Shown: positions 46,401-64,000 of the stretch, piece after piece
How positions within the stretch are numbered: the first letter of the stretch is position 1
Layout of the letters: every line of letters starts with the position of its first letter
The notes under the pieces: model-generated
Databases searched by the model: none
What the model was told of the DNA's origin: nothing
Seen by the model: the letters and a program-made list of their open reading frames with translations, nothing else
Source: Eledone cirrhosa
Lineage: Eukaryota
NCBI GenBank assembly: GCA_964016885.1
Contig: OZ024759.1
Location: 3,782,001 to 3,846,000 of the forward strand
Length of the DNA stretch: 64,000 nt
Direction: 5' to 3'
Position numbers and translations under genes: made by a program

Positions 46401-48499
46401 TGTCTGTGTGTCTACAATGTCTGTGTGTCTACAGTGTCTGTGTGTCTACAGTGTCTGTGTGTCTACAGTGACTGTGTGTCTACAATGTCTGTGTGTCTAC
46501 AATGTCTGAGTGTCTACAATGTCTGTGTGTCTACAATGTCTGTGTGTCTACAGTGCCTGTGTCTACAGTGCCTGTGTCTACAATGTCTGTGTGTCTACAG
46601 TGTCTGTGCCTACAATGCCTGTGTCTACAATGCCTGTGTCTACAGTGTCTGTGTGTCTACAGTGTCTGTGTCTACAGTGTCTGAGTCTACAATGTCTGTG
46701 TGTCTACAGTGTCTGTGTCTACAGTGTCCGTGTGTCTGTCTACATTGTCCGTGTGTCTACAGTGTCTGTGTCTACAGTGTCTGTGTGTCTACAGTGTCTG
46801 TGTGTCTACGTCTGTGTGTCTACACTGTCTGTCTGTCTACAGTGTTTGTGTGTCTACAGTGTCTGTGTGTCTACAATGTCTGTGTCTACAGTGTTTGTGT
46901 GTCTACAGTGTCTGTGTGTCTACAGTGTCTGTGCCTACAGTGTCTGGGTGTCTACAATGTCTGTGTGTCTACAGTGTCTGTGTGTCTACAGTGTCTGTGT
47001 GTCTACAGTGTCTGTGTGTTTACAGTGTCTGTGTGTCTACAGTGTCTGTGTGTCTACAGTGTCTGTGTGTCTACAGTGTCTGTGTCTACAGTGTCTGTGT
47101 GTCTACAGTGTCTGTGTGTCTACAAGATGTGTCTACAGTGTCTGTGTCTACAGTGTCTGTGTGTCTACACTGTCTGTCTACAGTGTTTGTGTGTCTACAG
47201 TGTCTGTGTGTTTACAGTGTCTGTGTGTCGACAGTGTCTGTGTCTACAGTGTCTGTGTGTCTACAGTGTCTGTGTGTCTACAAGATGTGTCTACAGTGTC
47301 TGTGTCTACAGTGTCTGTGTGTCTACAGTGTCTGTGTGTCTACAGTGTCTGTGTCTACAGTGTCTGTGTGTCTACAGTGTCTGTGTCTACAGTGTCTGTG
47401 TGTCTACAATGTCTGTGTGTCTACAATGTCTGTGTGTCTACAGTGTCTACAGTGTCTGTGTGTCTACAGTGACTGTGTGTCTACAATGTCTGTGTGTCTA
47501 CAATGTCTGTGTGTCTACAGTGTCTGTGTCTACAGTGTCTGTGTGTCTACAGTGTCTGTGTGTCTACAATGTCTGTGTGTCTACAATGTCTGTGTCTACA
47601 GTGTCTGTGTATCTACAGTGTCTGTGTGTCTACAGTGACTGTGTGTCTACAATGTCTGTGTGTCTACAATGTCTGTGTGTCTACAATGCCTGTGTCTCTA
47701 CATTGTCTGTGTCTACAGTGTCTGTGTGTCTACTATGTCTGTGTGTCTACAGTGTCTGTGTGTCTACAGTGTCTGTGTCTACAGTGTCTGTGTGTCTACA
47801 ATGTCTGTGTGTTTACAATGTCTGTGTCTACAGTGTCTGTGTGTCTACAGTGTCTGTGTGTCTACAATATCTGTGTGTCTACAGTGTCTGTATCTACATT
47901 GTCTGTATCTACACTGTCTGTGTCTCTACAGTGTCTGTGTCTACAATGTCTGTGTGTCTACAGTGTCTGTGTGTCTAAAATGTCTGTGTCTACAGTTTCT
48001 GTGTGTCTACAGTGTCTGTGTGTCTACAATGTCTGTGTGTCTACAGTGTCTGTGTCTACAGTGTCTGTGTGTCTAAAATGTCTACAGTGACTATGTGTCT
48101 ACAGTGTCTGTGTGTCTACAATGTTTGTGTGTCTACAATGTCTGTGTGTCTACAGTGTCTGTGTTTCTACAGTGTCTGTGTGTCTACAGTGACTGTATAT
48201 ACAGTGTCTGTGTGTCTACAGTGTCTGTGTGTCTACAGTGTCTGTGTGTCTACAATGCCTGTGTCTACAGTGTCTGTGTCTACTGTGTCTACAGTGTCTG
48301 TGTCTACAGTGTCTGTGTCTACTGTGTCTACAGTGTCTGTGTCTACAGTGTCTGAGTCTACAATGTCTGTGTGTCTACAGTGTCTGTGTGTGTACAGTGT
48401 CTGTGTCTACAGTGTCTGTGTCTACAGTGTCTGAGTCTACAATGTCTGTGTGTCCGTGTGTCTGTGTCTACAGTGTCTGTGTCTACAGTGCCTGTGTCT

Positions 48500-51250
48500 A
48501 CAGTGCCTGTGTCTACAGTGTCTGTGTCTACAGTGTCTGAGTCTACAATTTCTGTGTGTCTACAGTGTCTGTGTCTACAATGTCTGTGTCTACAGTGTCC
48601 GTGTGTCTGTCTACAGAGTCTGTGTGTCTACAGTGTCTGTGTCTACAGTGACTGTGTGTCTACAGTGTCTGTGTGTCTACAATATGTGTCCACAGTGTCC
48701 GTGTGTCTGTCTACAGTGTCTGTGTGTCTACAGTGTCTGTGTCTACAGTGTCTGTGTGTCTACGTCTGTGTGTCTACACTGTCTGTCTGTCTACAGTGTT
48801 TGTGTGTCTACAGTGTCTGTGTGTCTACAGTGTCTGTGTGTCTACAATGTCTGTGTCTACAGTGTTTGTGTGTCTACAGTGTCTGTGTGTCTATAGTGTC
48901 TGTGCCTACAGTGTCTGGGTGTCTACAATGTCTGTGTGTCTACAGTGTCTGTGTGTCTACAGTGTCTGTGTGTCTACAGTGTCTGTGTGTTTACAGTGTC
49001 TGTGTGTCTACAGTGTCTGTGTGTCTACAGTGTCTGTGTGTCTACAGTGTCTGTGTGTCTACAGTGTCTGTGTGTCCACAATGTCTGTGTGTCTACAATG
49101 TCTGTGTGTCTACAATGTCTGTGTGTCTACAGTGTCTGTATCTACATTGTCTGTATCTACAGTGTCTGTGTGTCTACAGTGTCTGTGTGTCTACAGTGTC
49201 TGTGTGTCTACAGTTTCTGTGTCTACAATGTCTGTGTGTCTACAGTGACTGTGTGTCTACAGTGTCTGTGTGTCTAAAATGTCTGTGTCTACAGTTTCTG
49301 TGTGTCTACAGTGTCTGTGTGTCTACAATGTCTGTGTGTCTACAGTGTCTGAGTCTACAATGTATGTGTGTCTACAGTGTCTGTGCCTACAATGCCTGTT
49401 TCTACAGTGTCTGTGTGTCTACAGTGTCTGAGTCTACAATGTCTGTGTGTCTACAGTGTCTGTGTGTCTACAGTGTCTGTGTCTATAGTGTCCGTGTGTC
49501 TGTCTACAGTGTCTGTGTGTCTACAGTGTCTGTGTCGACAGTGACTGTGTGTCTACAGTGTCTGTGTGTCTACAATATGTGTCCACAGTGTCCGTGTGTC
49601 TGTCTACAGTGTCTGTGTGTCTACAGTGTCTGTGTGTCTACGTCTGTGTGTCTACACTGTCTGTCTGTCTCCAGTGTTTGTGTGTCTACAGTATCTGTGT
49701 GTCTACAATGTCTGTGTCTACAGTGTCTGTGTGTCTACAGTGTCTGTGCCTACAGTGTCTGGGTGTCTACAATGTCTGTGTGTCTACAGTGTCTGTGTGT
49801 CTACAGTGTCTGTGTGTCTACAGTGTCTGTGTGTCTACAGTGTCTGTGTGTTTACAGTGTCTGTGTGTCTACAGTGTCTGTGTCTACAGTGTCTGTGTGT
49901 CTACAGTGTCTGTGTGTCTACAGTGTCTGTGTCTACAGTGTCTGTGTGTCTGTGTCTACAGTGTCTGTGTGTCTACAGTGTCTGTGTGTCCACAATGTCT
50001 GTGTGTCTACAATGTCTGTGTGTCTACAGTGTCTGTATCTACATTGTCTGTATCTACAGTGTCTGTGTGTCTACAATGTCTGTGTGTCTACAATGTCTGT
50101 GTGTCTACAGTGTCTGTATCTACATTGTCTGTATCTACAGTGTCTGTGTGTCTACAGTGTCTGTGTGTCTACAGTGTCTGTGTGTCTACAGTGTCTGTGT
50201 CTAAAGTGTCTGTGTGTCTACAGTTTCTGTGTCTACAATGTCTGTGTGTCTACAGTGACTGTGTGTCTACAGTGTCTGTGTGTCTAAAATGTCTGTCTAC
50301 AGTTTCTGTGTGTCTACAGTGTCTGTGTGTCTACAATGTCTGTGTGTCTACAGTGTCTGATTCTACAATGTATGTGTGTCTACAGTGTCTGTGCCTACAA
50401 TGCCTGTGTCTACAGTGTCTGTGTGTCTACAGTGTCTGTGTCTACAGTGTCTGAGTCTACAATGTCTGTGTGTCTACAGTGTCTGTGTCTACAATGTCTG
50501 TGTCTATAGTGTCCGTGTGTCTGTCTACAGTGTCTGTGTGTCTACAGTGTCTGTGTCTACAGTGACTGTGTGTCTACAGTGTCTGTGTGTCTACAATATG
50601 TGTCCACAGTGTCCGTGTGTCTGTCTACAGTGTCTGTGTGTCTACATTGTCTGTGTCTACGTCTGTGTGTCTACACTGTCTGTCTGTCTACAGTGTTTGT
50701 GTGTCTACAGTGTCTGTGTGTCTACAATGTCTGTGTCTACAGTGTTTGTGTGTCTACAGTGTCTGTGTGTCTACAGTGTCTGTGTGCCTACAGTGTCTGG
50801 GTGTCTACAATGTCTGTGTGTCTACAGTGTCTGTGTGTCTACAGTGTCTGTGTGTCTACAGTGTCTGTGTTTACAGTGTCTGTGTGTCTACAGTGTCTGT
50901 GTGTCTACAGTGTCTGTGTCTACAGTGTCTGTGTGTCTACAGTGTCTGTGTCTACAGTGTCTGTGTGTCTACAGTGTCTGTGTGTCTACAGTGTCTGTGT
51001 GTCTACAGTGTCTGTGTGTCCACAATGTCTGTGTGTCTACAATGTCTGTGTGTCTACAATGTCTGTGTGTCTACATTGTCTGTATCTACAGTGTCTGTGT
51101 GTCTACAGTGTCTGTGTGTCTACAGTGTCTGTGTCTAAAGTGTCTGTGTGTCTACAGTTTCTGTGTCTACAATGTCTGTGTGTCTACAGTGACTGTGTGT
51201 CTACAGTGTCTGTGTGTCTAAAATGTCTGTGTCTACAGTTTCTGTGTGTC
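48500..51250 (+). repeat. Imperfect triplication, about 0.9-1.0 kb unit
   Basis: aatatgtgtccacagtgtccg at ~48681, ~49574 and ~50595; pseudo-ORFs starting MSTICVHSV at 48673, 49566 and 50587. Confidence 0.7.
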
Positions 51251-51499
51251 TACAGTGTCTGTGTGTCTACAATGTCTGTGTGTCTACAATGTCTGTGTGT
51301 CTACAGTGTCTCTGTGTCTACAATGCCTGTGTCTACAGTGTCTGTGCGTCTACAGTGTCTGTGTGTCTACAGTGTCTGTGTGTCTACAATGTCTGTGTGT
51401 CTACAATGTCTGTGTGTCTACAGTGTCTGTGTGTCTACAGTGTCTGTGTGTCTACAGTGTCTGTGTGTCTACAATGCCTTTGTCTACAGTGTCTGTGTG

Positions 51500-54400
51500 T
51501 CTACAATGTCTGTGTCTACAGTGTCTGTGTGTCTAAAATGTCTACAGTGACTGTGTGTCTACAATGTCTGTGTGTCTACAGTGTCTGTGTGTCTACAGTG
51601 TTTCTGTGTCTACAATGCCTGTGTCTACAGTGCCTGTGTCTACAATGTCTGTGTGTCTACAGTGTCTGTGTGTCTACAGTGTCTGTGTCTCTACAGTGTC
51701 TGTGTCTACAGTGTCTGTGTGTCTACAGTGTCTGTGTGTCTACAATGTCTGTGTGTCTACAATGTCTGTGTGTCTACAATGTCTGTGTGTCTACAATGTC
51801 TGTGTGTCTACAATGTCTGTGTGTCTACAGTGTCTGTGTGTCTACAGTGTCTGTGTGTCTACAGTGTCTGTGTTTCTACAGTGTCTGTGTGTCTACAGTG
51901 ACTGTATATACAGTGTCTGTGTGTCTACAGTGTCTGTGTGTCTACAATGCCTGTGTCTACAGTGTATGTGTGTCTACAGTGTCTGTGTCTACAGTGTCTG
52001 TGTGTCTACAGTGTCTGTGTGTCTACAGTGTCTGTGTGTCTACAGTGTCTATGTCTACAGTGTCTGTGTCTACAGTGTCTGTGTGTCTACAGTGTCTGTG
52101 TGCCTACAATGTCTGTGTGTCAACAGTGACTGTGTGTCTACAGTGTCTGTGTGTCTACAGTGTCTGTGTGTCTACAGTGTCTGTGTGCCTACAATGTCTG
52201 TGTGCCTACAATGTCTGCGTGTCTACAGTGTCTGTGTGTCTACAGTGTCTGTGTGTCTACAGTGTCTGTGTGTTTACAGTGTCTGTGTGTCTACAATGTC
52301 TGTGTGTCTACAGTGTCTGTGTGTCTACAATGTCTGTGTATCTACAATGTCTGTGTGTGTACAATATCTGTGTGTCTACAATGTCTGTGTGTCTACAATG
52401 TCTGTGTGTCTACAGTCTCTGTGTGTCTACAGTGTCTGTGTCTACAGTGTCTGTGTGTCTACAGTGTCTGTGTCTACAGTGTCTGTGTGTCTACAGTGTC
52501 TGTGTGTCTACAATGTCTGTGTGTCTACAATGTCTGTGTGTCTACAATGTCTGTGTGTCTACAATGTCTGTGTGTCTACAGTGTCTGTGTGTCTACAGTG
52601 TCTGTGTCTCTACATTGTCTGTGTGTCTACAGTGTCTGTATCTACAGTGTCTGTGTGTCTACAGTGTCTGTGTGTCTGTGTCTACAGTGTCTGTGTTTCT
52701 ACAGTGTCTGTGTCTACAGTGTCTGTGTGTCTACAGTGTCTGTGTGTCCACAATGTCTGTGTGTCTACAATGTCTGTGTGTCTACAATGTCTGTGTGTCT
52801 ACAGTGTCTGTGTGTCTACAGTGTCTGTATCTACATTGTCTGTATCTACAGTGTCTGTGTCTCTACAGTGTCTATGTCTACAATGTCTGTGTGTCTACAG
52901 TGTCTGTGTGTCTACAGTGTCTGTGTGTCTACAGTGTCTGTGTCTAAAGTGTCTGTGTCTCTACAGTGACTGTGTGTCTACAGTGTCTGTGTGTCTAAAA
53001 TGTCTGTGTCTACAGTTTCTGTGTCTACAGTGTCTGTGTGTCTACAATGTCTGTGTGTCTACAGTGTCTGTGTCTACAGTGTCTGTGTGTCTAAAATGTC
53101 TGTGTCTACAGTGACTGTGTGTCTACAGTGTCTGTGTGTCTACAATGTTTGTGTGTCTACAGTGTCTGTGTGTCTACACTGTCTGTGTCTACAATGTCTG
53201 TGTGTCTACAGTGTCTGTGTGTCTAAAATTTCTGTGTCTACAGTGACTGTGTGTCTACAGTGTCTCTGTGTCTACAATGCCTGTGTCTACAGTGTTTGTG
53301 TGTCTACAGTGTCTGTGTCTACAGTGTCTGTGTGTCTACAGTGTCTGTGTGTCTACAATGTCTGTGTGTCTACAATGTCTGTGTGTCTACAGTGTCTGTG
53401 TGTCTACAGTGTCTGTGTTTCTACAGTATCTGTGTGTCTACAGTGACTGCATATACAGTATCTGTGTGTCTACAGTGTCTGTGTGTCTACAATGCCTTTG
53501 TCTACAGTGTCTGTGTGTCTACAATGTCTGTGTCTACAGTGTCTGTGTGTCTAAAATGTCTACAGTGACTGTGTGTCTACAGTGTCTGTGTGTCTACAAT
53601 GTCTGTGTGTCTACAGTGTCTGTGTGTCTACAATGCCTTTGTCTACAGTGTTTCTGTGTCTACAATGCCTGTGTCTACAGTGCCTGTGTCTACAATGTCT
53701 GTGTGTCTACAGTGTCTGTGTGTCTACAGTGTCTGTGTCTACAGTGTCTGTGTGTCTACAGTGTCTGTGTCTACAGTGTCTGTGTGTCTACAGTGTCTGT
53801 GTGTCTACAATGTCTGTGTGTCTACAATGTCTGTGTGTCTACAATGTCTGTGTGTCTACAATGTCTGTTTGTCTACAATGTCTGTGTGTCTACAGTGTCT
53901 GTGTGTCTACAGTGTCTGTGTTTCTACAGTGTCTGTGTGTCTACAGTGACTGTATATACAGTGTCTGTGTGTCTACAGTGTCTGTGTGTCTACAGTGTCT
54001 GTGTGTCTACAATGCCTGTGTCTACAGTGTATGTGTGTCTACAGTGTCTGTGTCTACAGTGTCTGTGTGTCTACAGTGTCTGTGTGTCTACAGTGTCTAT
54101 GTCTACAGTGTCTGTGTCTACAGTGTCTGTGTGTCTACAGTGTCTGTGTGCCTACAATGTCTGTGTGTCAACAGTGACTGTGTGTCTACAGTGTCTGTGT
54201 GTCTACAGTGTCTGTGTGTCTACAGTGTCTGTGTGCCTACAATGTCTGTGTGCCTACAATGTCTGTGTGCCTACAATGTCTGCGTGTCTACAGTGTCTGT
54301 GTGTCTACAGTGTCTGTGTGTTTACAGTGTCTGTGTGTCTACAATGTCTGTGTGTCTACAGTGTCTGTGTGTCTACAGTGTCTGTGTGTCTACAGTGTCT

Positions 54401-55500
54401 GTGTGCCTACAATGTCTGTGTGCCTACAATGTCTGTGTGCCTACAATGTCTGCGTGTCTACAATGTCTGCGTGTCTACAGTGTCTGTGTGTCTACAGTGT
54501 CTGTGTGCCTACAATGTCTGTGTGTCAACAGTGACTGTGTGTCTACAGTGTCTGTGTGTCTACAGTGTCTGTGTGTCTACAGTGTCTGTGTGCCTACAAT
54601 GTCTGTGTGCCTACAATGTCTGTGTGCCTACAATGTCTGCGTGTCTACAGTGTCTGTGTGTCTACAGTGTCTGTGTGTCTACAGTGTCTGTGTGTCTACA
54701 GTGTCTGTGTGTCTGTGTCTACAGTGTCTGTGTGTCTACAGTGTCTGTGTGTCTACAGTGTCTGTGTGTCCACAATGTCTGTGTGTCTACAATGTCTGTG
54801 TGTCTACAATGTCTGTGTGTCTACAGTGTCTGTGTGTCTACAGTGTCTGTATCTACATTGTCTGTATCTACAGTGTCTGTGTCTCTACAGTGTCTATGTC
54901 TACAATGTCTGTGTGTCTACAGTGTCTGTGTGTCTACAGTGTCTGTGTGTCTACAGTGTCTGTGTCTAAAGTGTCTGTGTGTCTACAATGTCTGTGTGTC
55001 TACAGTGACTGTGTGTCTACAGTGTCTGTGTGTCTAAAATGTCTGTGTCTACAGTTTCTGTGTCTACAGTGTCTGTGTGTCTACAATGTCTGTGTGTCTA
55101 CAGTGTCTGTGTGTCTACACTGTCTGTGTCTACAATGTCTGTGTGTCTACAGTGTCTGTGTCTACAATGTCTGTGTCTACAGTGACTGTGTGTCTACAGT
55201 GTCTCTGTGTCTACAATGCCTGTGTCTACAGTGTTTGTGTGTCTACAGTGTCTGTGTCTACAGTGTCTGTGTGTCTACAGTGTCTGTGTGTCTACAATGT
55301 CTGTGTGTCTACAATGTCTGTGTGTCTACAGTGTCTGTGTGTCTACAGTGTCTGTGTGTCTACAGTGTCTGTGTTTCTACAGTATCTGTGTGTCTACAGT
55401 GACTGTATATACAGTGTCTGTGTGTCTACAGTGTCTGTGTGTCTACAATGCCTTTGTCTACAGTGTCTGTGTGTCTACAGTGTCTGTGTGTCTAAAATGT
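51500..55500 (+). repeat. Imperfect tandem block duplication, about 2.0 kb unit
   Basis: gtctaaaatgtctacag at ~51531, ~53549 and ~55490; gtcaacagtgactg at ~52119 and ~54167; pseudo-ORF ends at 52129 and 54177 (offset 2048). Confidence 0.7.
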
Positions 55501-56649
55501 CTACAGTGACTGTGTGTCTACAGTGTCTGTGTGTCTACAATGCCTTTGTCTACAGTGTTTATGTGTCTACAATGCCTGTGTCTACAGTGCCTGTGTCTAC
55601 AGTGCCTGTGTCTCTACAGTGTCTGTGTCTACAGTGTCTGTGTGTCTACAGTGTCTGTGTGTCTACAATGTCTGTGTGTCTACAATGTCTGTGTGTCTAC
55701 AATGTCTGTTTGTCTACAATGTCTGTGTGTCTACAGTGACTGTATATACAGTGTCTGTGTGTCTACAGTGTCTGTGTGTCTACAGTGTCTGTGTGTCTAC
55801 AATGCCTGTGTCTACAGTGTCTGTGTCTACTGTGTCTACAGTGTCTGTGTCTACTGTGTCTACAGTGTCTGTGTCTACAGTGTCTGAGTCTACAATGTCT
55901 GTGTGTCTACAGTGTCTGTGTGTGTACAGTGTCTGTGTCTACAGTGTCTGTGTCTACAGTGTCTGTGTCTACAGTGTCTGTGTGACTACAGTGTCTGAGT
56001 CTACAATGTCTGTGTGTCTACAATGCCTGTGTCTACAGTGTCCGTGTGTCTGTGTCTACAGTGTCTGAGTCTACAATGTATGTGTGTCTACAGTGTCTGT
56101 GCCTACAATGCCTGTGTCTACAGTGTCTGTGTGTCTACAGTGTCTGTGTCTACAGTGTCTGAGTCTACAATGTCTGTGTGTCTACAGTGTCTGTGTCTAC
56201 AATGTCTGTGTCTACAGTGTCCGTGTGTCTGTCTACAGAGTCTGTGTGTCTACAGTGTCTGTGTCTACAGTGACTGTGTGTCTACAGTGTCTGTGTGTCT
56301 ACAATATGTGTCCACAGTGTCCGTGTGTCTGTCTACAGTGTCTGTGTGTCTACAGTGTCTGTGTCTACAGTGCCTGTGTGTCTACGTCTGTGTGTCTACA
56401 CTGTCTGTCTGTCTACAGTGTTTGTGTGTCTACAGTGTTTGTGTGTCTACACTGTCTGTCTGTCTACAGTGTTTGTGTGTCTACAGTGTCTGTGTTTCTA
56501 CAGTGTCTGGGTGTCTACAGTGACTATATATACAGTGTCTGTGTGTCTACAGTGTCTGTGTGTCTACAGTGTCTGTGTGTCTACAGTGTCTGTGTGTCTA
56601 CAATGTCTGTTTCTACAGTGTCTGTGTGTCTAAAATGTCTGTGTCTACA

Positions 56650-59600
56650 GTGACTGTGTGTCTACAATGTCTGTGTGTCTACAGTGACTGTGTGTCTACA
56701 ATGTCTGTGTGTCTACAATGTCTGTGTGTCTACAGTGCCTGTGTCTACAGTGCCTGTGTCTCTACAGTGTCTGTGCCTACAATGCCTGTGTCTACAGTGT
56801 CTGTGTCTACAGTGTCTGTGTCTACAGTGTCTGAGTCTACAATGTCTGTGTGTCTACAGTGTCTGTGTCTACAGTGTATGTGTCTACAGTGACTGTGTGT
56901 CTACAGTGTCTGTGTGTCTACAACATGTGTCTACAGTGTCTGTGTCTACAGTGTCTGTGTGTCTACACTGTCTGTCTGTCTACAGTGTTTGTGTGTCTAA
57001 AGTGTCTGTGTGTCTACAATGTATGTGTGTATACAGTGTCTGTGTGTCTACGTCTGTGTGTCTACAGTGTCTGTGTGTCTACAGTGTCTGTGTCTCTACA
57101 TTGTCTGTGTGTCTACAGTGTCTGTGTCTACAGTGTCTGTGTGTCTACAGTGTCTGTGTGTCTACAATGCCTGTGTCTACAGTGTATGTGTGTCTACAGT
57201 GTCTGTGTGTCTACAGTGTCTGTGTCTACTGTGTCTACAGTGTCTGTGTCTACTGTGTCTACAGTGTCTGTGTCTACAATGTCTGTGTGTCTACAGAGTC
57301 TGTGTGTGTACAGTGTCTGTGTCTACAGTGTCTGTGTCTACAGTGTCTGAGTCTACAATGTCTGTGTGTCCGTGTCTACATTGTCTGTGTCTACAGTGTC
57401 TGAGTCTACAGTGCCTGTGTCTACAGTGTCTGTGTGTCTACAGTGTCTGTGTCTACAGTGTCTGTGTCTACAGTGTCTGAGTCTACAATGTCTGTGTGTC
57501 TACAATGCCTGTGTCTACAGTGTCCGTGTGTCTGTGTCTACAGTGTCTGAGTCTACAATGTATGTGTGTCTACAGTGTCTGTGCCTACAATGCCTGTGTC
57601 TACAGTGTCTGTGTCTAAAGTGTCTGTGTCTACAATGTCTGTGTGTCTACAGTGTCTGTATCTACAGTGTCTGTGTGTCTAAAATGTCTGTGTCTACAGT
57701 GACTGTGTGTCTACAGTGTCTGTGTGTCTACAATGTTTGTGTGTCTACAGTGTCTGTGTGTCTACAGTGTCTGTGTCTACAATGTCTGTGTGTCTACAGT
57801 GTCTGTGTCTACAGTGTCTGTGTGTCTAAAATGTCTGTGTCTACAGTGACTGTGTGTCTACAGTGTCTGTGTGTCTACAATGTTTGTGTGTCTACAGTGT
57901 CTGTGTGTCTACAGTGTCTGTGTCTACAATGTCTGTGTGTCTACAGTGTCTGTGTGTCTAAAATGTCTGTGTCTACAGTGACTGTGTGTCTACAGTGTCT
58001 CTGTGTCTACAATGCCTGTGTCTACAGTGTCTGTGTGTCTACAGTGTCTGTGTCTACAGTGTCTGTGTGTCTACAGTGTCTGTGTGTCTACAATGTCTGT
58101 GTGTCTACAATGTCTGTGTGTCTACAGTGTCTGTGTGTCTACAGTGTCTGTGTGTCTACAGTGACTGTATATACAGTGTCTGTGTGTCTACAGTGTCTGT
58201 GTGTCTACAATGCCTTTGTCTACAGTGTCTGTGTGTCTACAATGTCTGTGTCTACAGTGTCTGTGTGTCTAAAATGTCTACAGTGACTGTGTGTCTACAG
58301 TGTCTGTGTGTCTACAATGTCTGTGTGTCTACAGTGTCTGTGTGTCTACAGTGTTTCTGTGTCTACAGTGTCTGTGTCTACAATGTCTGTGTGTCTACAG
58401 TGTCTGTGTCTACAGTGTCTGTGTGTCAAAAACGTCTGTGTCTACAGTGACTGTGTGTCTACAGTGTCTGTGTGTCTACAATGTTTGTGTGTCTAAAATG
58501 TCTACAGTGACTGTGTGTCTACAGTGTCTGTGTGTCTACAATGCCTTTGTCTACAGTGTTTATGTGTCTACAATGCCTGTGTCTACAGTGCCTGTGTCTA
58601 CAATGTCTGTGTGTCTACAGTGTCTGTGTGTCTACAGTGTCTATGTCTACAGTGTCTGTGTGTCTACAGTGTCTGTGTCTACAGTGTCTGTGTGTCTACA
58701 GTGTCTGTGTGTCTACAATGTCTGTGTGTCTACAATGTCTGTGTGTCTACAATGTCTGTTTGTCTACAATGTCTGTGTGTCTACAGTGACTGTATATACA
58801 GTGTCTGTGTGTCTACAGTGTCTGTGTGTCTACAGTGTCTGTGTGTCTACAATGCCTGTGTCTACAGTGTCTGTGTCTACTGTGTCTACAGTGTCTGTGT
58901 CTACTGTGTCTACAGTGTCTGTGTCTACAGTGTCTGAGTCTACAATGTCTGTGTGTGTACAGTGTCTGTGTGTGTACAGTGTCTGTGTCTACAGTGTCTG
59001 TGTCTACAGTGACTGTGTGTCTACAATGTCTGTGTGTCTACAGTGACTGTGTGTCTACAATGTCTGTGTGTCTACAATGTCTGTGTGTCTACAATGTCTG
59101 TGTGTCTACAGTGCCTGTGTCTACAGTGCCTGTGTCTCTACAGTGTCTGTGCCTACAATGCCTGTGTCTACAGTGTCTGTGTCTACAGTGTCTGTGTCTA
59201 CAGTGTCTGAGTCTACAATGTCTGTGTGTCTACAGTGTCTGTGTCTACAGTGACTGTGTGTCTACAGTGTCTGTGTGTCTACAATATGTGTCTACAGTGT
59301 CTGTGTCTACAGTGTCTGTGTGTCTACACTGTCTGTCTGTCTACAGTGTTTGTGTGTCTAAAGTGTCTGTGTGTCTACAATGTATGTGTGTATACAGTGT
59401 CTGTGTGTCTACAGTGTCTGTGTGTCTACAGTGTCTGTGTCTCTACATTGTCTGTGTGTCTACAGTGTCTGTGTCTACAGTGTCTGTGTGTCTACAGTGT
59501 CTGTGTGTCTACAATGCCTGTGTCTACAGTGTATGTGTGTCTACAGTGTCTGTGTGTCTACAGTGTCTGTGTCTACTGTGTCTACAGTGTCTGTGTCTAC

Positions 59601-60900
59601 TGTGTCTACAGTGTCTGTGTCTACAATGTCTGTGTGTCTACAGAGTCTGTGTGTGTACAGTGTCTGTGTCTACAGTGTCTGTGTCTACAGTGTCTGAGTC
59701 TACAATGTCTGTGTGTCCGTGTGTCTGTGTCTACAGTGTCTGTGTCTACAGTGTCTGAGTCTACAGTGCCTGTGTCTACAGTGTCTGTGTGTCTACAGTG
59801 TCTGTGTCTACAGTGTCTGAGTCTACAATGTCTGTGTGTCCGTGTGTCTGTGTCTACAGTGTCTGTGTCTACAGTGTCCGAGTCTACAGTGCCTGTGTCT
59901 ACAGTGTCTGTGTGTCTACAGTGTCTGTGTCTACAGTGTCTGAGTCTACAATGTATGTGTGTCTACAGTGTCTGTGCCTACAATGCCTGTGTCTACAGTG
60001 TCTGTGTCTAAAGTGTCTGTGTCTACAATGTCTGTGTGTCTACAGTGTCTGTATCTACAGTGTCTGTGTGTCTAAAATGTCTGTGTCTACAGTGACTGTG
60101 TATCTACAGTGTCTGTGTGTCTACAATGTTTGTGTGTCTACAGTGTCTGTGTGTCTACAGTGTCTGTGTCTACAATGTCTGTGTGTCTACAGTGTCTGTG
60201 TCTACAGTGTCTGTGTGTCTAAAATGTCTGTGTCTACAGTGACTGTGTGTCTACAGTGTCTGTGTGTCTACAATGTTTGTGTGTCTACAGTGTCTGTGTA
60301 TCTACAGTGTCTGTGTCTACAATGTCTGTGTGTCTACAGTGTCTGTGTCTACAGTGTCTGTGTCTACAGTGTCTGTGTGTCTAAAATGTCTGTGTCTACA
60401 GTGACTGTGTGTCTACAGTGTCTCTGTGTCTACAATGCCTGTGTCTACAGTGTCTGTGTGTCTACAGTGTCTGTGTCTACAGTGTCTGTGTGTCTACAGT
60501 GTCTGTGTGTCTACAATGTCTGTGTGTCTACAATGTCTGTGTGTCTACAGTGTCTGTGTGTCTACAGTGTCTGTGTGTCTACAGTGACTGTATATACAGT
60601 GTCTGTGTGTCTACAGTGTCTGTGTGTCTACAATGCCTTTGTCTACAGTGTCTGTGTGTCTACAATGTCTGTGTCTACAGTGTCTGTGTGTCTAAAATGT
60701 CTACAGTGACTGTGTGTCTACAGTGTCTGTGTGTCTACAATGTCTGTGTGTCTACAGTGTCTGTGTGTCTACAGTGTTTCTGTGTCTACAGTGTCTGTGT
60801 CTACAATGTCTGTGTGTCTACAGTGTCTGTGTCTACAGTGTCTGTGTGTCAAAAATGTCTGTGTCTACAGTGACTGTGTGTCTACAGTGTCTGTGTGTCT
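56650..60900 (+). repeat. Tandem block duplication, about 2.4 kb unit
   Basis: Pseudo-ORFs 57986/60409 and 58291/60714 (offset 2423); private gtcaaaaa variant at ~58425 and ~60848. Confidence 0.8.
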
Positions 60901-61339
60901 ACAATGTTTGTGTGTCTACAGTGTCTGTGTGTCTACACTGTCTGTGTCTACAATGTCTGTGTGTCTACAGTGTCTGTGTCTACAGTGTCTACAGTGTCTG
61001 TGTCTACAGTGTCTGTGTCTACAGTGTCTGTGTGTCTACAGTGTCTGTGTGTCTACAATGTCTGTGTTTCTACAGTGTCTGTGTGTCTACAGTGACTGTA
61101 TATACAGCGTATGTATGTCTACAGCGTCTGTGTGTCTACAGTGTCTGTGTGTCTACAATGCCTGTGTCTACAGTGTATGTGTGTCTACAGTGTCTGTGTC
61201 TACAGTGTCTGTGTCTACTGTGTCTACAGTGTCTGTGTCTACAGTGTCTGAGTCTACAATGTCTGTGTGTCTATAGTGTCTGTGTGTGTACAGTGTCTGT
61301 GTCTACAGTGTCTGTGTCTACAGTGTCTGTGTCTACAGT

Positions 61340-63625
61340 GTCTGAGTCTACAGTGCCTGTGTCTACAGTGTCTGTGTGTCTACAGTGTCTGTGTCTACAG
61401 TGTCTGAGTCTACCATGTCTGTGTGTCTACAATGCCTGTGTCTACAGTGTCCGTGTGTCTGTGTCTACAGTGTCTGAGTCTACAATGCATGTGTGTCTAC
61501 AGTGTCTGTGCCTACAATGCCTGTGTCTACAGTGTCTGTGTGTCTACAGTGTCTGTGTCTACAGTGTCTGTGTCTACAGTGTCTGAGTCTACAATGTCTG
61601 TGTGTCTACAGTGTCTGTGTCTACAATGTCTGTGTCTACAGTGTCCGTGTGTCTGTCTACAGTGTCTGTGTGTCTACAGTGTCTGTGTCCACAGTGACTG
61701 TGTGTCTACAGTGTCTGTGTGTCTACAATATGTGTCTACAGTGTCCGTGTGTCTGTCTACAGTGTCTGTTTGTCTACAGTGTCTGTGTCTACAGTGTCTG
61801 TGTCTACAGTGTCTGTGTCTACAGTGTCTGTGTCTCTACATTGTCTGTGTGTCTACAATGTCTGTGTCTACAGTGTCTGTGTGTCTGTGTGGCTACAATG
61901 TCTCTGTGTCTACAGTGTCTGTGGTTCTACAGTGTCTGTGTGTCTGTGTGGCTACAATGTCTGTGTGTCTACAGTGTCTTAGTCAACAGTTTCTGTGTCA
62001 ACAGTGTCTGTGTCTACAGTGTCTGTGTGTCTACAATGTCTGTGTCTACAGTGTCTGTATGTCTACAGTGTCTGTGTGTCTACAGTGTGTGTGTGTCTAC
62101 AGTGTCTGTGTGTCTACAGTGTCTGTGTGCCTACAATGTCTGTGTGTCTACAGTGTCTGTGTCTACAGTGTCTGTGTGTCTACAATGTCTGTGTGTCTAC
62201 AGTGTGTGTGTCTACAGTGTCTGTGTGTCTACAGTGTCTGTGTGTCTACAGTGTCTGTGTCTACAGTGTCTGTGTCTACAGTGTCTGTGTGTCTACAGTG
62301 TCTGTGTGTCTACAGTGTCTGTGTGCCTACAATGTCTGTGTGTCTACAGTGTCTGTGTCTACAGTGTCTGTGTCTACAGTGTCTGTGTGTCTACAATGTC
62401 TGTGTGTCTACAATGTCTGTGTGTCTACAGTGTCTGTGTGTCTACAGTGTCTGTGTGTCTACAGTTTCTGTGTCTACAGTGTCTGAGTCTACAGTGCCTG
62501 TGTCTACAGTGTCTGTGTGTCTACAGTGTCTGTGTCTACAGTGTCTGAGTCTACAATGTCTGTGTGTCTACAATGCCTGTGTCTACAGTGTCCGTGTGTC
62601 TGTGTCTACAGTGTCTGAGTCTACAATGCATGTGTGTCTACAGTGTCTGTGCCTACAATGCCTGTGTCTACAGTGTCTGTGTGTCTACAGTGTCTGTGTC
62701 TACAGTGTCTGTGTCTACAGTGTCTGAGTCTACAATGTCTGTGTGTCTACAGTGTCTGTGTCTACAATGTCTGTGTCTACAGTGTCCGTGTGTCTGTCTA
62801 CAGTGTCTGTGTGTCTACAGTGTCTGTGTCCACAGTGACTGTGTGTCTACAGTGTCTGTGTGTCTACAATATGTGTCTACAGTGTCCGTGTGTCTGTCTA
62901 CAGTGTCTGTTTGTCTACAGTGTCTGTGTCTACAGTGTCTGTGTCTACAGTGTCTGTGTCTCTACATTGTCTGTGTGTCTACAATGTCTGTGTCTACAGT
63001 GTCTGGGTGTCTACAGTGTCTGTGTGGCTACAATGTCTGTGTGTCTACAGTGTCTGTGGTTCTACAGTGTCTGTGTGTCTGTGTGGCTACAATGTCTGTG
63101 TGTCTACAGTGTCTTAGTCAACAGTTTCTGTGTCAACAGTGTCTGTGTGTCTACAATGTCTGTGTCTACAGTGTCTGTATGTCTACAGTGTCTGTGTGTC
63201 TACAGTGTGTGTGTGTCTACAGTGTCTGTGTGTCTACAGTGTCTGTGTGCCTACAATGTCTGTGTGTCTACAGTGTCTGTGTCTACAGTGTCTGTGTGTC
63301 TACAATGTCTGTGTGTCTACAGTGTGTGTGTCTACAGTGTCTGTGTGTCTACAGTGTCTGTGTGTCTACAGTGTCTGTGTCTACAGTGTCTGTGTCTACA
63401 GTGTCTGTGTGTCTACAGTGTCTGTGTGTCTACAGTGTCTGTGTGCCTACAATGTCTGTGTGTCTACAGTGTCTGTGTCTACAGTGTCTGTGTCTACAGT
63501 GTCTGTGTCTACAGTGTCTGTGTGTCTACAATGTCTGTGTGTCTACAATGTCTGTGTGTCTACAGTGTCTGTGTGTCTACAGTGTCTGTGTGTCTACAGT
63601 GTCTGTGTGTCTACAGTTTCTGTGT
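61340..63625 (+). repeat. Terminal tandem block duplication, 1141-bp unit, adjacent to the LINE junction
   Basis: Pseudo-ORF starts 61423/62564, 61493/62634 and 61719/62860 are all offset by 1141. Private variants gtcttagtcaacagtttctg (~61976, ~63111), gtggttctac, ggctac and aatgcatg occur only in these two copies. Confidence 0.88.
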
Positions 63626-63998
63626 CTACAGTGTCAGTGTCTACAGTGTCTGTGTCCCACTGTCCCTCTATATTGTCCGACTCTAAATGCTCTTCCTTAC
63701 TGTCGAAAGCATCAAGTAATATGCTTTGAAATTTATTTCTGGCTGTGGGGTCCTTTAGCTTCCATATTTTTCTCTTGAGGATAGTCCTCTTCTGCTGTCG
63801 AGTACGTCTCGTCCTGACTATGAGGTCGCTAATTATCAGTCTATGTTGGGAGGTGCTTTCTTCATGGGGGAGGGATTTAGTGTTTACAACAGACACTCTG
63901 TCACGTCTTCTGGTAAGGATATAATCTACCTGGCTGGTATGTTCCCCTGATCTGTAGATGATCAAGCGATTGTCTCGTTTTTTGAAGTTAGTGTTACA
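63594..63998 (-). pseudogene. 5'-open LINE ORF, truncated by the satellite: 114 stop-free LINE codons followed in frame by DTDTV-DTDTV-DTETV-DTQTL-stop
   Basis: The frame stays open upstream of the track's TTG at 63965 (11 more codons to 63998). The stop is TAG at 63594-63596, in the first 17-bp monomer boundary. No reverse transcriptase domain lies within the window. Confidence 0.7.
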
Positions 63999-64000
63999 GA
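63657..64000 (-). mobile_element. Non-LTR retrotransposon (LINE, probably RTE clade) fragment: C-terminal part of the APE-type endonuclease plus start of the EN-RT linker; continues beyond the right edge
   Basis: Minus-strand translation CNTNFKKRDNRLIIYRSGEHTSQVDYILTRRRDRVSVVNTKSLPHEESTSQHRLIISDL...KRKIWKLKD...EGQW matches by recognition the NTxF(K)K, (T)YxSG..SQ(I/V)DYIL and xQHR motifs of RTE-like (CFDP2-like) EEP endonucleases. The clade call comes from motif memory, not a search. Confidence 0.88.

Follow-up and report, generated by a model that had tools for sequence, protein, structure and literature searches.

Previous work has placed LINEs and other transposable elements at satellite boundaries (reviewed in PMC12628747). 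As far as the available part of that review describes them, these systems resemble the locus analyzed here in that a truncated LINE piece touches a satellite in a repeat-rich region. They differ in that the cut here lies mid-ORF on the 3' side of the element, in a copy that is only ~1% old. Three further kinds of junction have been described in the accessible portions of other papers. In twin-primed 5' inversions, the target is joined to a position inside the LINE through 2 to 5 bp of microhomology (PMC2912911), and twin-primed L1 copies (PMC2912911, PMC4245944) share with our junction an antisense internal position, microhomology, and the absence of a tail or extra bases. In these texts, however, the process is mainly one of mammalian L1, whereas our LINE is RTE-like and only its join and 344 bp are visible. 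Internal priming and endonuclease-independent insertion leave 3'-truncated L1 ends, which are tail-less and lie inside the element, as here; the human cases in the part of the paper available prime at A-rich tracts, whereas the join here is not A-rich (PMC4859970). Finally, satellite can come to lie inside an element via 2 to 10 bp of homology, as for alpha pieces in L1, Alu, and ERV (PMC7719264) and for MSAT-11_cRei (PMC9977147), and this too is like our locus. In the available text, alpha pieces of mostly a few monomers are said not to spread further, whereas the array here exceeds 63 kb (PMC7719264). On the LINE side, octopus RTE-2_OV (PMC9115989), likened here by its partial description only, has a single 1109-aa ORF with endonuclease (EN) and reverse transcriptase (RT), as do relatives of our LINE. 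RTE-BovB has expanded in cephalopods (PMC10294476), and the RTE-clade LINEs of octopus and other cephalopods form abundant young families in the sections seen of both papers, as here (PMC9115989, PMC10294476). The portions available of the literature on satellite-LINE junctions and cephalopod satellites, supplements aside, held no description of the 15/17-bp repeat or of this locus. Every explanation of the junction that we consider live is a known process.

The window, by which we mean the whole 64-kb stretch of DNA analyzed, consists almost entirely of a satellite or minisatellite array (positions 1 to 63656, unstranded) that leaves it at the left edge. TRF returned a single array at 1 to 63655 with a period of 17, 3879 copies (~3,880 units), and 84% matches. 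The units are mixed 17- and 15-bp monomers; we found 172 monomer types among 3574 of them, with a diversity of ~3% from the main units. No foreign sequence interrupts the array and there is no N anywhere in the window, in agreement with the sequence-only reading, which had described a satellite array of more than 63 kb meeting a LINE piece. Monomer purity is steady toward the LINE, and the final 20 units form the cleanest bin: 16 of the 20 belong to one of the three commonest types, compared with ~55% array-wide. The three last monomers (63611 to 63656) include a TTT variant and a monomer unique in the array (63626), which is probably chance. The satellite also occurs in public runs under three organism labels. 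A search of metagenome contigs with the satellite pattern gave 0 matches, and an Rfam scan of 60000 to 64000 gave none.

Adjoining the array is a LINE ORF piece of 114 stop-free codons on the minus strand (63657 to 63998), which comprises the C-terminal end of an RTE-like, APE-type endonuclease and the start of the EN-RT linker. LINE sequence continues to 64000 and leaves the window at the right edge, with 344 bp visible; the two other minus-strand frames in the fragment are full of stops. The fragment is 57% identical over its full length to residues 248 to 361 of P0001, an Exo_endo_phos (PF03372) protein, although the fragment alone had no match in Pfam. We found that 1027 representatives match at an E value of ≤0.001, that 96 of 97 relatives were matched, with RVT_1 in most of the full-length ones, and that profile A1 matches L1 ORF2p at 1e-55. 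One Octopus bimaculoides protein matches a fifth of P0001 at 79% identity. Another match, P0007, is named CFDP2-like; CFDP2 is presumably the bovine Bcnt protein, which reportedly contains an RTE-1 endonuclease. This homology to APE endonuclease and RT polyproteins, together with the dispersed, multicopy nature of the family described below, identifies the fragment as part of an APE-type non-LTR retrotransposon (LINE). The longer relatives of P0001 are mostly 950- to 1,130-aa proteins with EN and RVT_1 (in many cases also a PHD domain) on 3.2- to 4.2-kb contigs, with no RNase H listed for these top matches. Thus, the RTE layout, a single EN-RT ORF of ~1,000 to 1,100 aa in a 3- to 4-kb element without RNase H, is seen in the relatives only. 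We regard membership of the RTE clade as likely, rather than established, because RT is absent from the fragment. A PHD finger stands beside EN and RT in many full-length relatives (P0158, P0159, P0162, and others).

Projected onto the ~1,050-aa EN-RT relatives, the break falls at about residue 340. Because this position precedes RVT_1, which begins near residue 565 in P0116 and P0137, the break lies in the EN-RT linker, as had been proposed from the sequence alone. Compared with 35 full-length relatives, a median of 715 residues is missing at the break and 229 lie upstream, beyond the window. About two-thirds of the ORF (the linker, all of RT, and the C terminus) and the 3' end are therefore absent at the join. 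An intact or active LINE has an uninterrupted ORF through RT, and this ORF stops in the linker.

Ten public runs from 6 studies contained the stretch or part of it, seven of them with at least half of its words. On 63620 to 64000 (381 bp), we aligned 1898 contigs from run X5, 13 from X1, 7 from X7, and 1 from X10. The 1898 X5 contigs carry many variant letters, as expected of a dispersed, multicopy family. The copy in the window has four private substitutions (63775, 63857, 63958, and 63967, read on the minus strand), which are all nonsynonymous and differ from virtually all contigs in all four runs. Its private change is thus 4/346, or 1.2% (95% confidence interval [CI], 0.3 to 2.9%). One of the four changes hits a Thr position that holds T in 94 of 96 relatives and S in the other two. 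Four nonsynonymous changes out of four arise by chance 39% of the time, and 114 codons remain open after four random substitutions in 82% of cases; the open frame therefore speaks for youth, not function. We conclude from these substitutions that the copy is young, likely dead, and likely not under selection. The earlier description of the LINE ORF as intact does not hold for 344 visible bp that carry four private nonsynonymous changes and would be expected to stay open this often. ADAR-type editing is unsupported, as the four changes are of four different kinds.

The family contains several subfamilies. Except at the four private sites, the lone long X7 contig matches the window, whereas most of the X5 depth also departs from it at 63687, 63936, and 63939 (63687 to 63954 in X5, X1, and X7).

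We then consider the junction itself (63655 to 63656, unstranded), where two bases are compatible with the satellite phase as well as with the continuation of the LINE family. Such a 2-bp microhomology is not above chance, since at least two shared bases are expected in 18% of random joins. The minus-strand frame running from 63998 to 63657 ends at the Trp codon (63659 to 63657) and then reads satellite, and so a stop-free endonuclease ORF of 114 codons does enter the array directly after this codon, as first noted. We also saw no poly(A), tail, or degenerate spacer at the join, as had been stated, and the last 20 monomers are clean up to it. Alignments of LINE contigs reach down to 63655, beyond which the contigs continue in frame into nonsatellite sequence encoding Glu-Phe-Leu-Lys, as in the next residues of P0001, which bears out that the break is mid-ORF. 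This native LINE continuation was found in 8 X5, 2 X7, and 2 X1 contigs aligned on 63620 to 64000 and, in a targeted alignment on 63615 to 63697, in 1 X5, 2 X6, and 2 X8 contigs. Satellite contigs align up to 63655 to 63656 and continue as satellite; every satellite loose end among those listed runs on into satellite or satellite-like sequence. We found no imperfect extended homology at the break above background. Saying that the array "starts in the middle of" the LINE, as the sequence-only reading did, implies an order of events, and the window shows none.

The targeted alignment comprised 143 contigs from X5, 132 from X6, and 123 from X8, all three from one sample, as well as 1119 RAD reads from X12; pieces were retained by length, the longest of them covering 43 bases on a single side. 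No piece crosses 63656 among the best 24 of 1929 matches (including all 7 X7 records) or the best 24 of 412. Three X12 reads sit on the satellite side of 63656, with their right ends unseen. The junction pattern gave 0 matches in metagenome contigs. If the copy were absent, a word share of 0.65 would be expected, because 117 of the 331 words overlap either the join or one of the private sites. We found shares of 0.56 to 0.73 in X1, X5, X6, X7, and X8 (0.62 to 0.73 in the best runs), leaving out X4 (0.06). The public runs thus seem to be without this LINE copy, so that the missing join-spanning contigs are uninformative and neither confirm nor challenge the join.

The array has two parts of different history. 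From 1 to 47000 (unstranded) it is recently amplified and homogenized, with kilobase-long, near-identical blocks in a mosaic; the best other copy differs by ≤1.0% in 15 of 16 1-kb tiles left of ~46 kb. The LINE-proximal part (47001 to 63656, unstranded) is older. Its tile partners are mostly local, its private monomer variants are more numerous, and the best copy of each 1-kb tile differs by 2.2 to 5.6% (median, 3.4%; 16 tiles), compared with 5.3 to 7.1% in 12 shuffled control tiles. The two parts remain related, since 27% of the 60-mers of the right part are found in the core versus 9% when shuffled. The last local tandem duplication (61313 to 63655, unstranded) has a period of ~1141 bp and ends about two monomers from the junction; 61313 to 62518 and 62454 to 63655 differ at 9 of 1176 aligned bases (~0.8%; 0.8 to 1.2% when aligned directly). 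Overall the array is structurally very active, with dozens of near-exact 0.6- to 1.6-kb duplications and near-exact blocks of up to 1.6 kb. Homogeneity shifts sharply near 47 kb, from the recently amplified mosaic core to an older margin whose duplications are all local, and core offsets recur at ~1.7, 3.3, 5.9 to 6.0, 9.0, and 18.3 kb.

Because tile divergence beside the LINE exceeds that of the left core, the LINE-adjoining array is the older part, and the data lean toward local duplication within it over a time roughly equal to, or exceeding, the age of the LINE copy. The local duplicates in these oldest 16 kb differ by a median of 3.4% pairwise, or ~1.7% per lineage, versus 1.2% for the LINE. 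This estimate leans toward the array having come first but overlaps with the same age, given the LINE CI of 0.3 to 2.9%; tiles that span the ends of duplications also overstate mismatch, and a satellite may evolve faster than a LINE.

Taken together, these data make it rather probable that the array was there first, whether the LINE end was lost by a later deletion or was never made because the insertion was tail-less; the window cannot tell these two apart. The satellite is present in runs X1, X5, X6, X7, and X8, which seem to be without the LINE copy, and this supports an older array. The clean array edge likewise fits a cut through an existing repeat. As a rough base-rate inference, young LINEs should land in an old, long array more often than one of them comes to host the seed of a new array. 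Between the two, we tentatively rank first a deletion or rearrangement after insertion, whose two breakpoints, one within the LINE and the other within the array, were rejoined at the 2-bp microhomology, although we give it somewhat less than an even chance. The ranking follows from an array that is old at its LINE end and highly unstable and from the rarity of inversion outside L1. The sequence-only reading had offered such a fusion by later deletion as its second option, and that option, thus qualified, is the one we keep. According to this model, normal target-primed reverse transcription would first have placed the LINE within or next to the array, its 3' end facing the repeat. Breakage or template switching in the unstable array would then have removed at least 2.1 kb of the LINE and some flank or array, end joining would have sealed the break, and the array would have kept expanding, mostly further left. 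Several points weigh against a deletion. A copy that is ~1% old leaves little time for one, the age comparison overlaps, the two shared bases fit every model as well as chance, and the join is crossed by none of the listed contigs or reads.

The same clean edge could instead date from the insertion itself, with the LINE landing in an existing array and a free 3' end of the array priming inside the RNA. Twin, internal, and endonuclease-independent priming can each give exactly such a junction. The premise that a LINE here should have either a tail or a 5' truncation point is therefore too narrow; it describes ordinary copies, but these processes and later deletions also produce tail-less, mid-ORF junctions. 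The twin-priming variant predicts a 5'-inverted copy with its RT half further right on the plus strand, and the internal or endonuclease-independent variant predicts a tail-less copy. Consistently with the former, the geometry is that of a twin-primed 5' junction, in which the target top strand is followed by antisense LINE running from an internal point toward its 5' end, with 2 bp shared at chance level. In the part of PMC2912911 available, ~70% of 5'-inverted L1 copies have 2 to 5 bp of microhomology, and internal and endonuclease-independent priming yield 3' truncation in that of PMC4859970. However, 5' inversions were nearly confined to human L1 in cultured cells in the text available of PMC4245944, with one Nimb-2 case and RTE not among the elements tested. 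No strand-changing joint occurs among the 1898 X5 contigs on the 381-bp stretch, a search of low power that needs both arms inside the stretch. As for the RTE Tn-TA signature (PMC13295347), TTT lies 9 to 11 bases before the TA at 63627 to 63628, a Tn-TA-like arrangement, and occurs in 195 of 3574 monomers; it implies a 29-bp duplication, and only through this duplication does the signature fit, whereas RTE duplications peak at 10 to 12 bp in the available part of PMC4245944. We consider a junction made at insertion possible but on the unlikely side.

Less probable again, and unlikely on present evidence, is the capture that the sequence-only reading had headlined alongside birth in the LINE: a block of existing satellite would have been placed inside the LINE, by break repair or reintegration of circular DNA at short homology, and grown in place to more than 63 kb, so that the LINE would resume at the far left of the array. 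The abrupt join with two shared bases fits this, as does an array whose oldest part lies beside the LINE and whose youngest lies further in, as in growth from a seed; here too the ages overlap. Precedents in the partial texts include alpha-satellite pieces in L1, Alu, and ERV with 2- to 10-bp junction duplications (PMC7719264) and de novo satellite insertions of 0.5 to more than 21 kb in Chlamydomonas (PMC9977147). In contrast, because the 16 kb beside the LINE have partners no closer than ~2%, the last block excepted, such growth needs a seed of many kilobases of already varied satellite, or fast divergence. Young LINE copies are also a small target, and the predicted second junction is absent among the satellite loose ends listed.

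We think it very unlikely that the join is an assembly artifact between two very common repeats. Both sides are indeed high copy, and no listed piece crosses in six contig sets, nor visibly among the 1119 RAD reads. There is, however, no N or gap and the array structure is consistent up to the join. The four private sites are nearly absent from the public runs, which appear to lack the copy, so that the missing join says little.

That LINE sequence at the break duplicated and so gave birth to the 15/17-bp unit de novo, which would make the array arise inside the LINE as once suggested, can practically be dismissed: the first LINE bases have a loose likeness to the monomer (7 of 12 columns), but resemblance to the satellite is no stronger at the break than at other places in the LINE fragment (rank 81/337 to 281/335 at four window sizes), the family continuation is unlike satellite, the repeat occurs under three organism labels, and 172 monomer types ~3% from the main units exceed what an age of 1.2% gives. 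For the same reason we rejected a LINE-derived satellite, in which the monomer is homologous to the element at its site of origin, since neither the break nor the family continuation resembles the satellite; this comparison covered the LINE fragment in the window and the family sequence just past the break.

The consequences differ between these readings. No function for the junction is implied, and unless the LINE resumes at the far end of the array, the junction is of an ordinary kind. Under the likely readings, this is another broken retrotransposon at a satellite edge, with little consequence. If satellite was instead placed inside the LINE, the split copy would bracket and date the array and provide a rare clock for satellite seeding and growth to more than 63 kb. 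If the copy is 5' inverted, twin priming would extend from mammalian L1 to the RTE clade, in an invertebrate.

Other copies of the family carry breaks of their own. In X5, we observed five skip-type joints of 52 to 239 bp within 63716 to 63980, in single low-depth contigs from other family copies, one of which swaps 91 bases for 31 others. They give a weak hint that mid-ORF breaks are common in this LINE family, with one contig each and four of the five having fewer than 30 letters on the short side.

A candidate breakpoint hotspot at 63655 across the family came from the X12 RAD reads, 499 of 1119 of which had mixed loose ends there (agreement, 0.4). We rejected it as a library artifact because AAT ends complete a family AATT site and a second AATT lies at 63730 to 63733. 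The median loose length of 71 is also 150 minus 79, and genomic contigs show native continuation only. Restriction-ligation chimeras at AATT sites explain the loose ends best, and we infer that the RAD enzyme was an AATT cutter such as MluCI. The ~80-bp LINE fragment between the two sites (63655 to 63733) can thus be mistaken in X12 for hundreds of insertion junctions.
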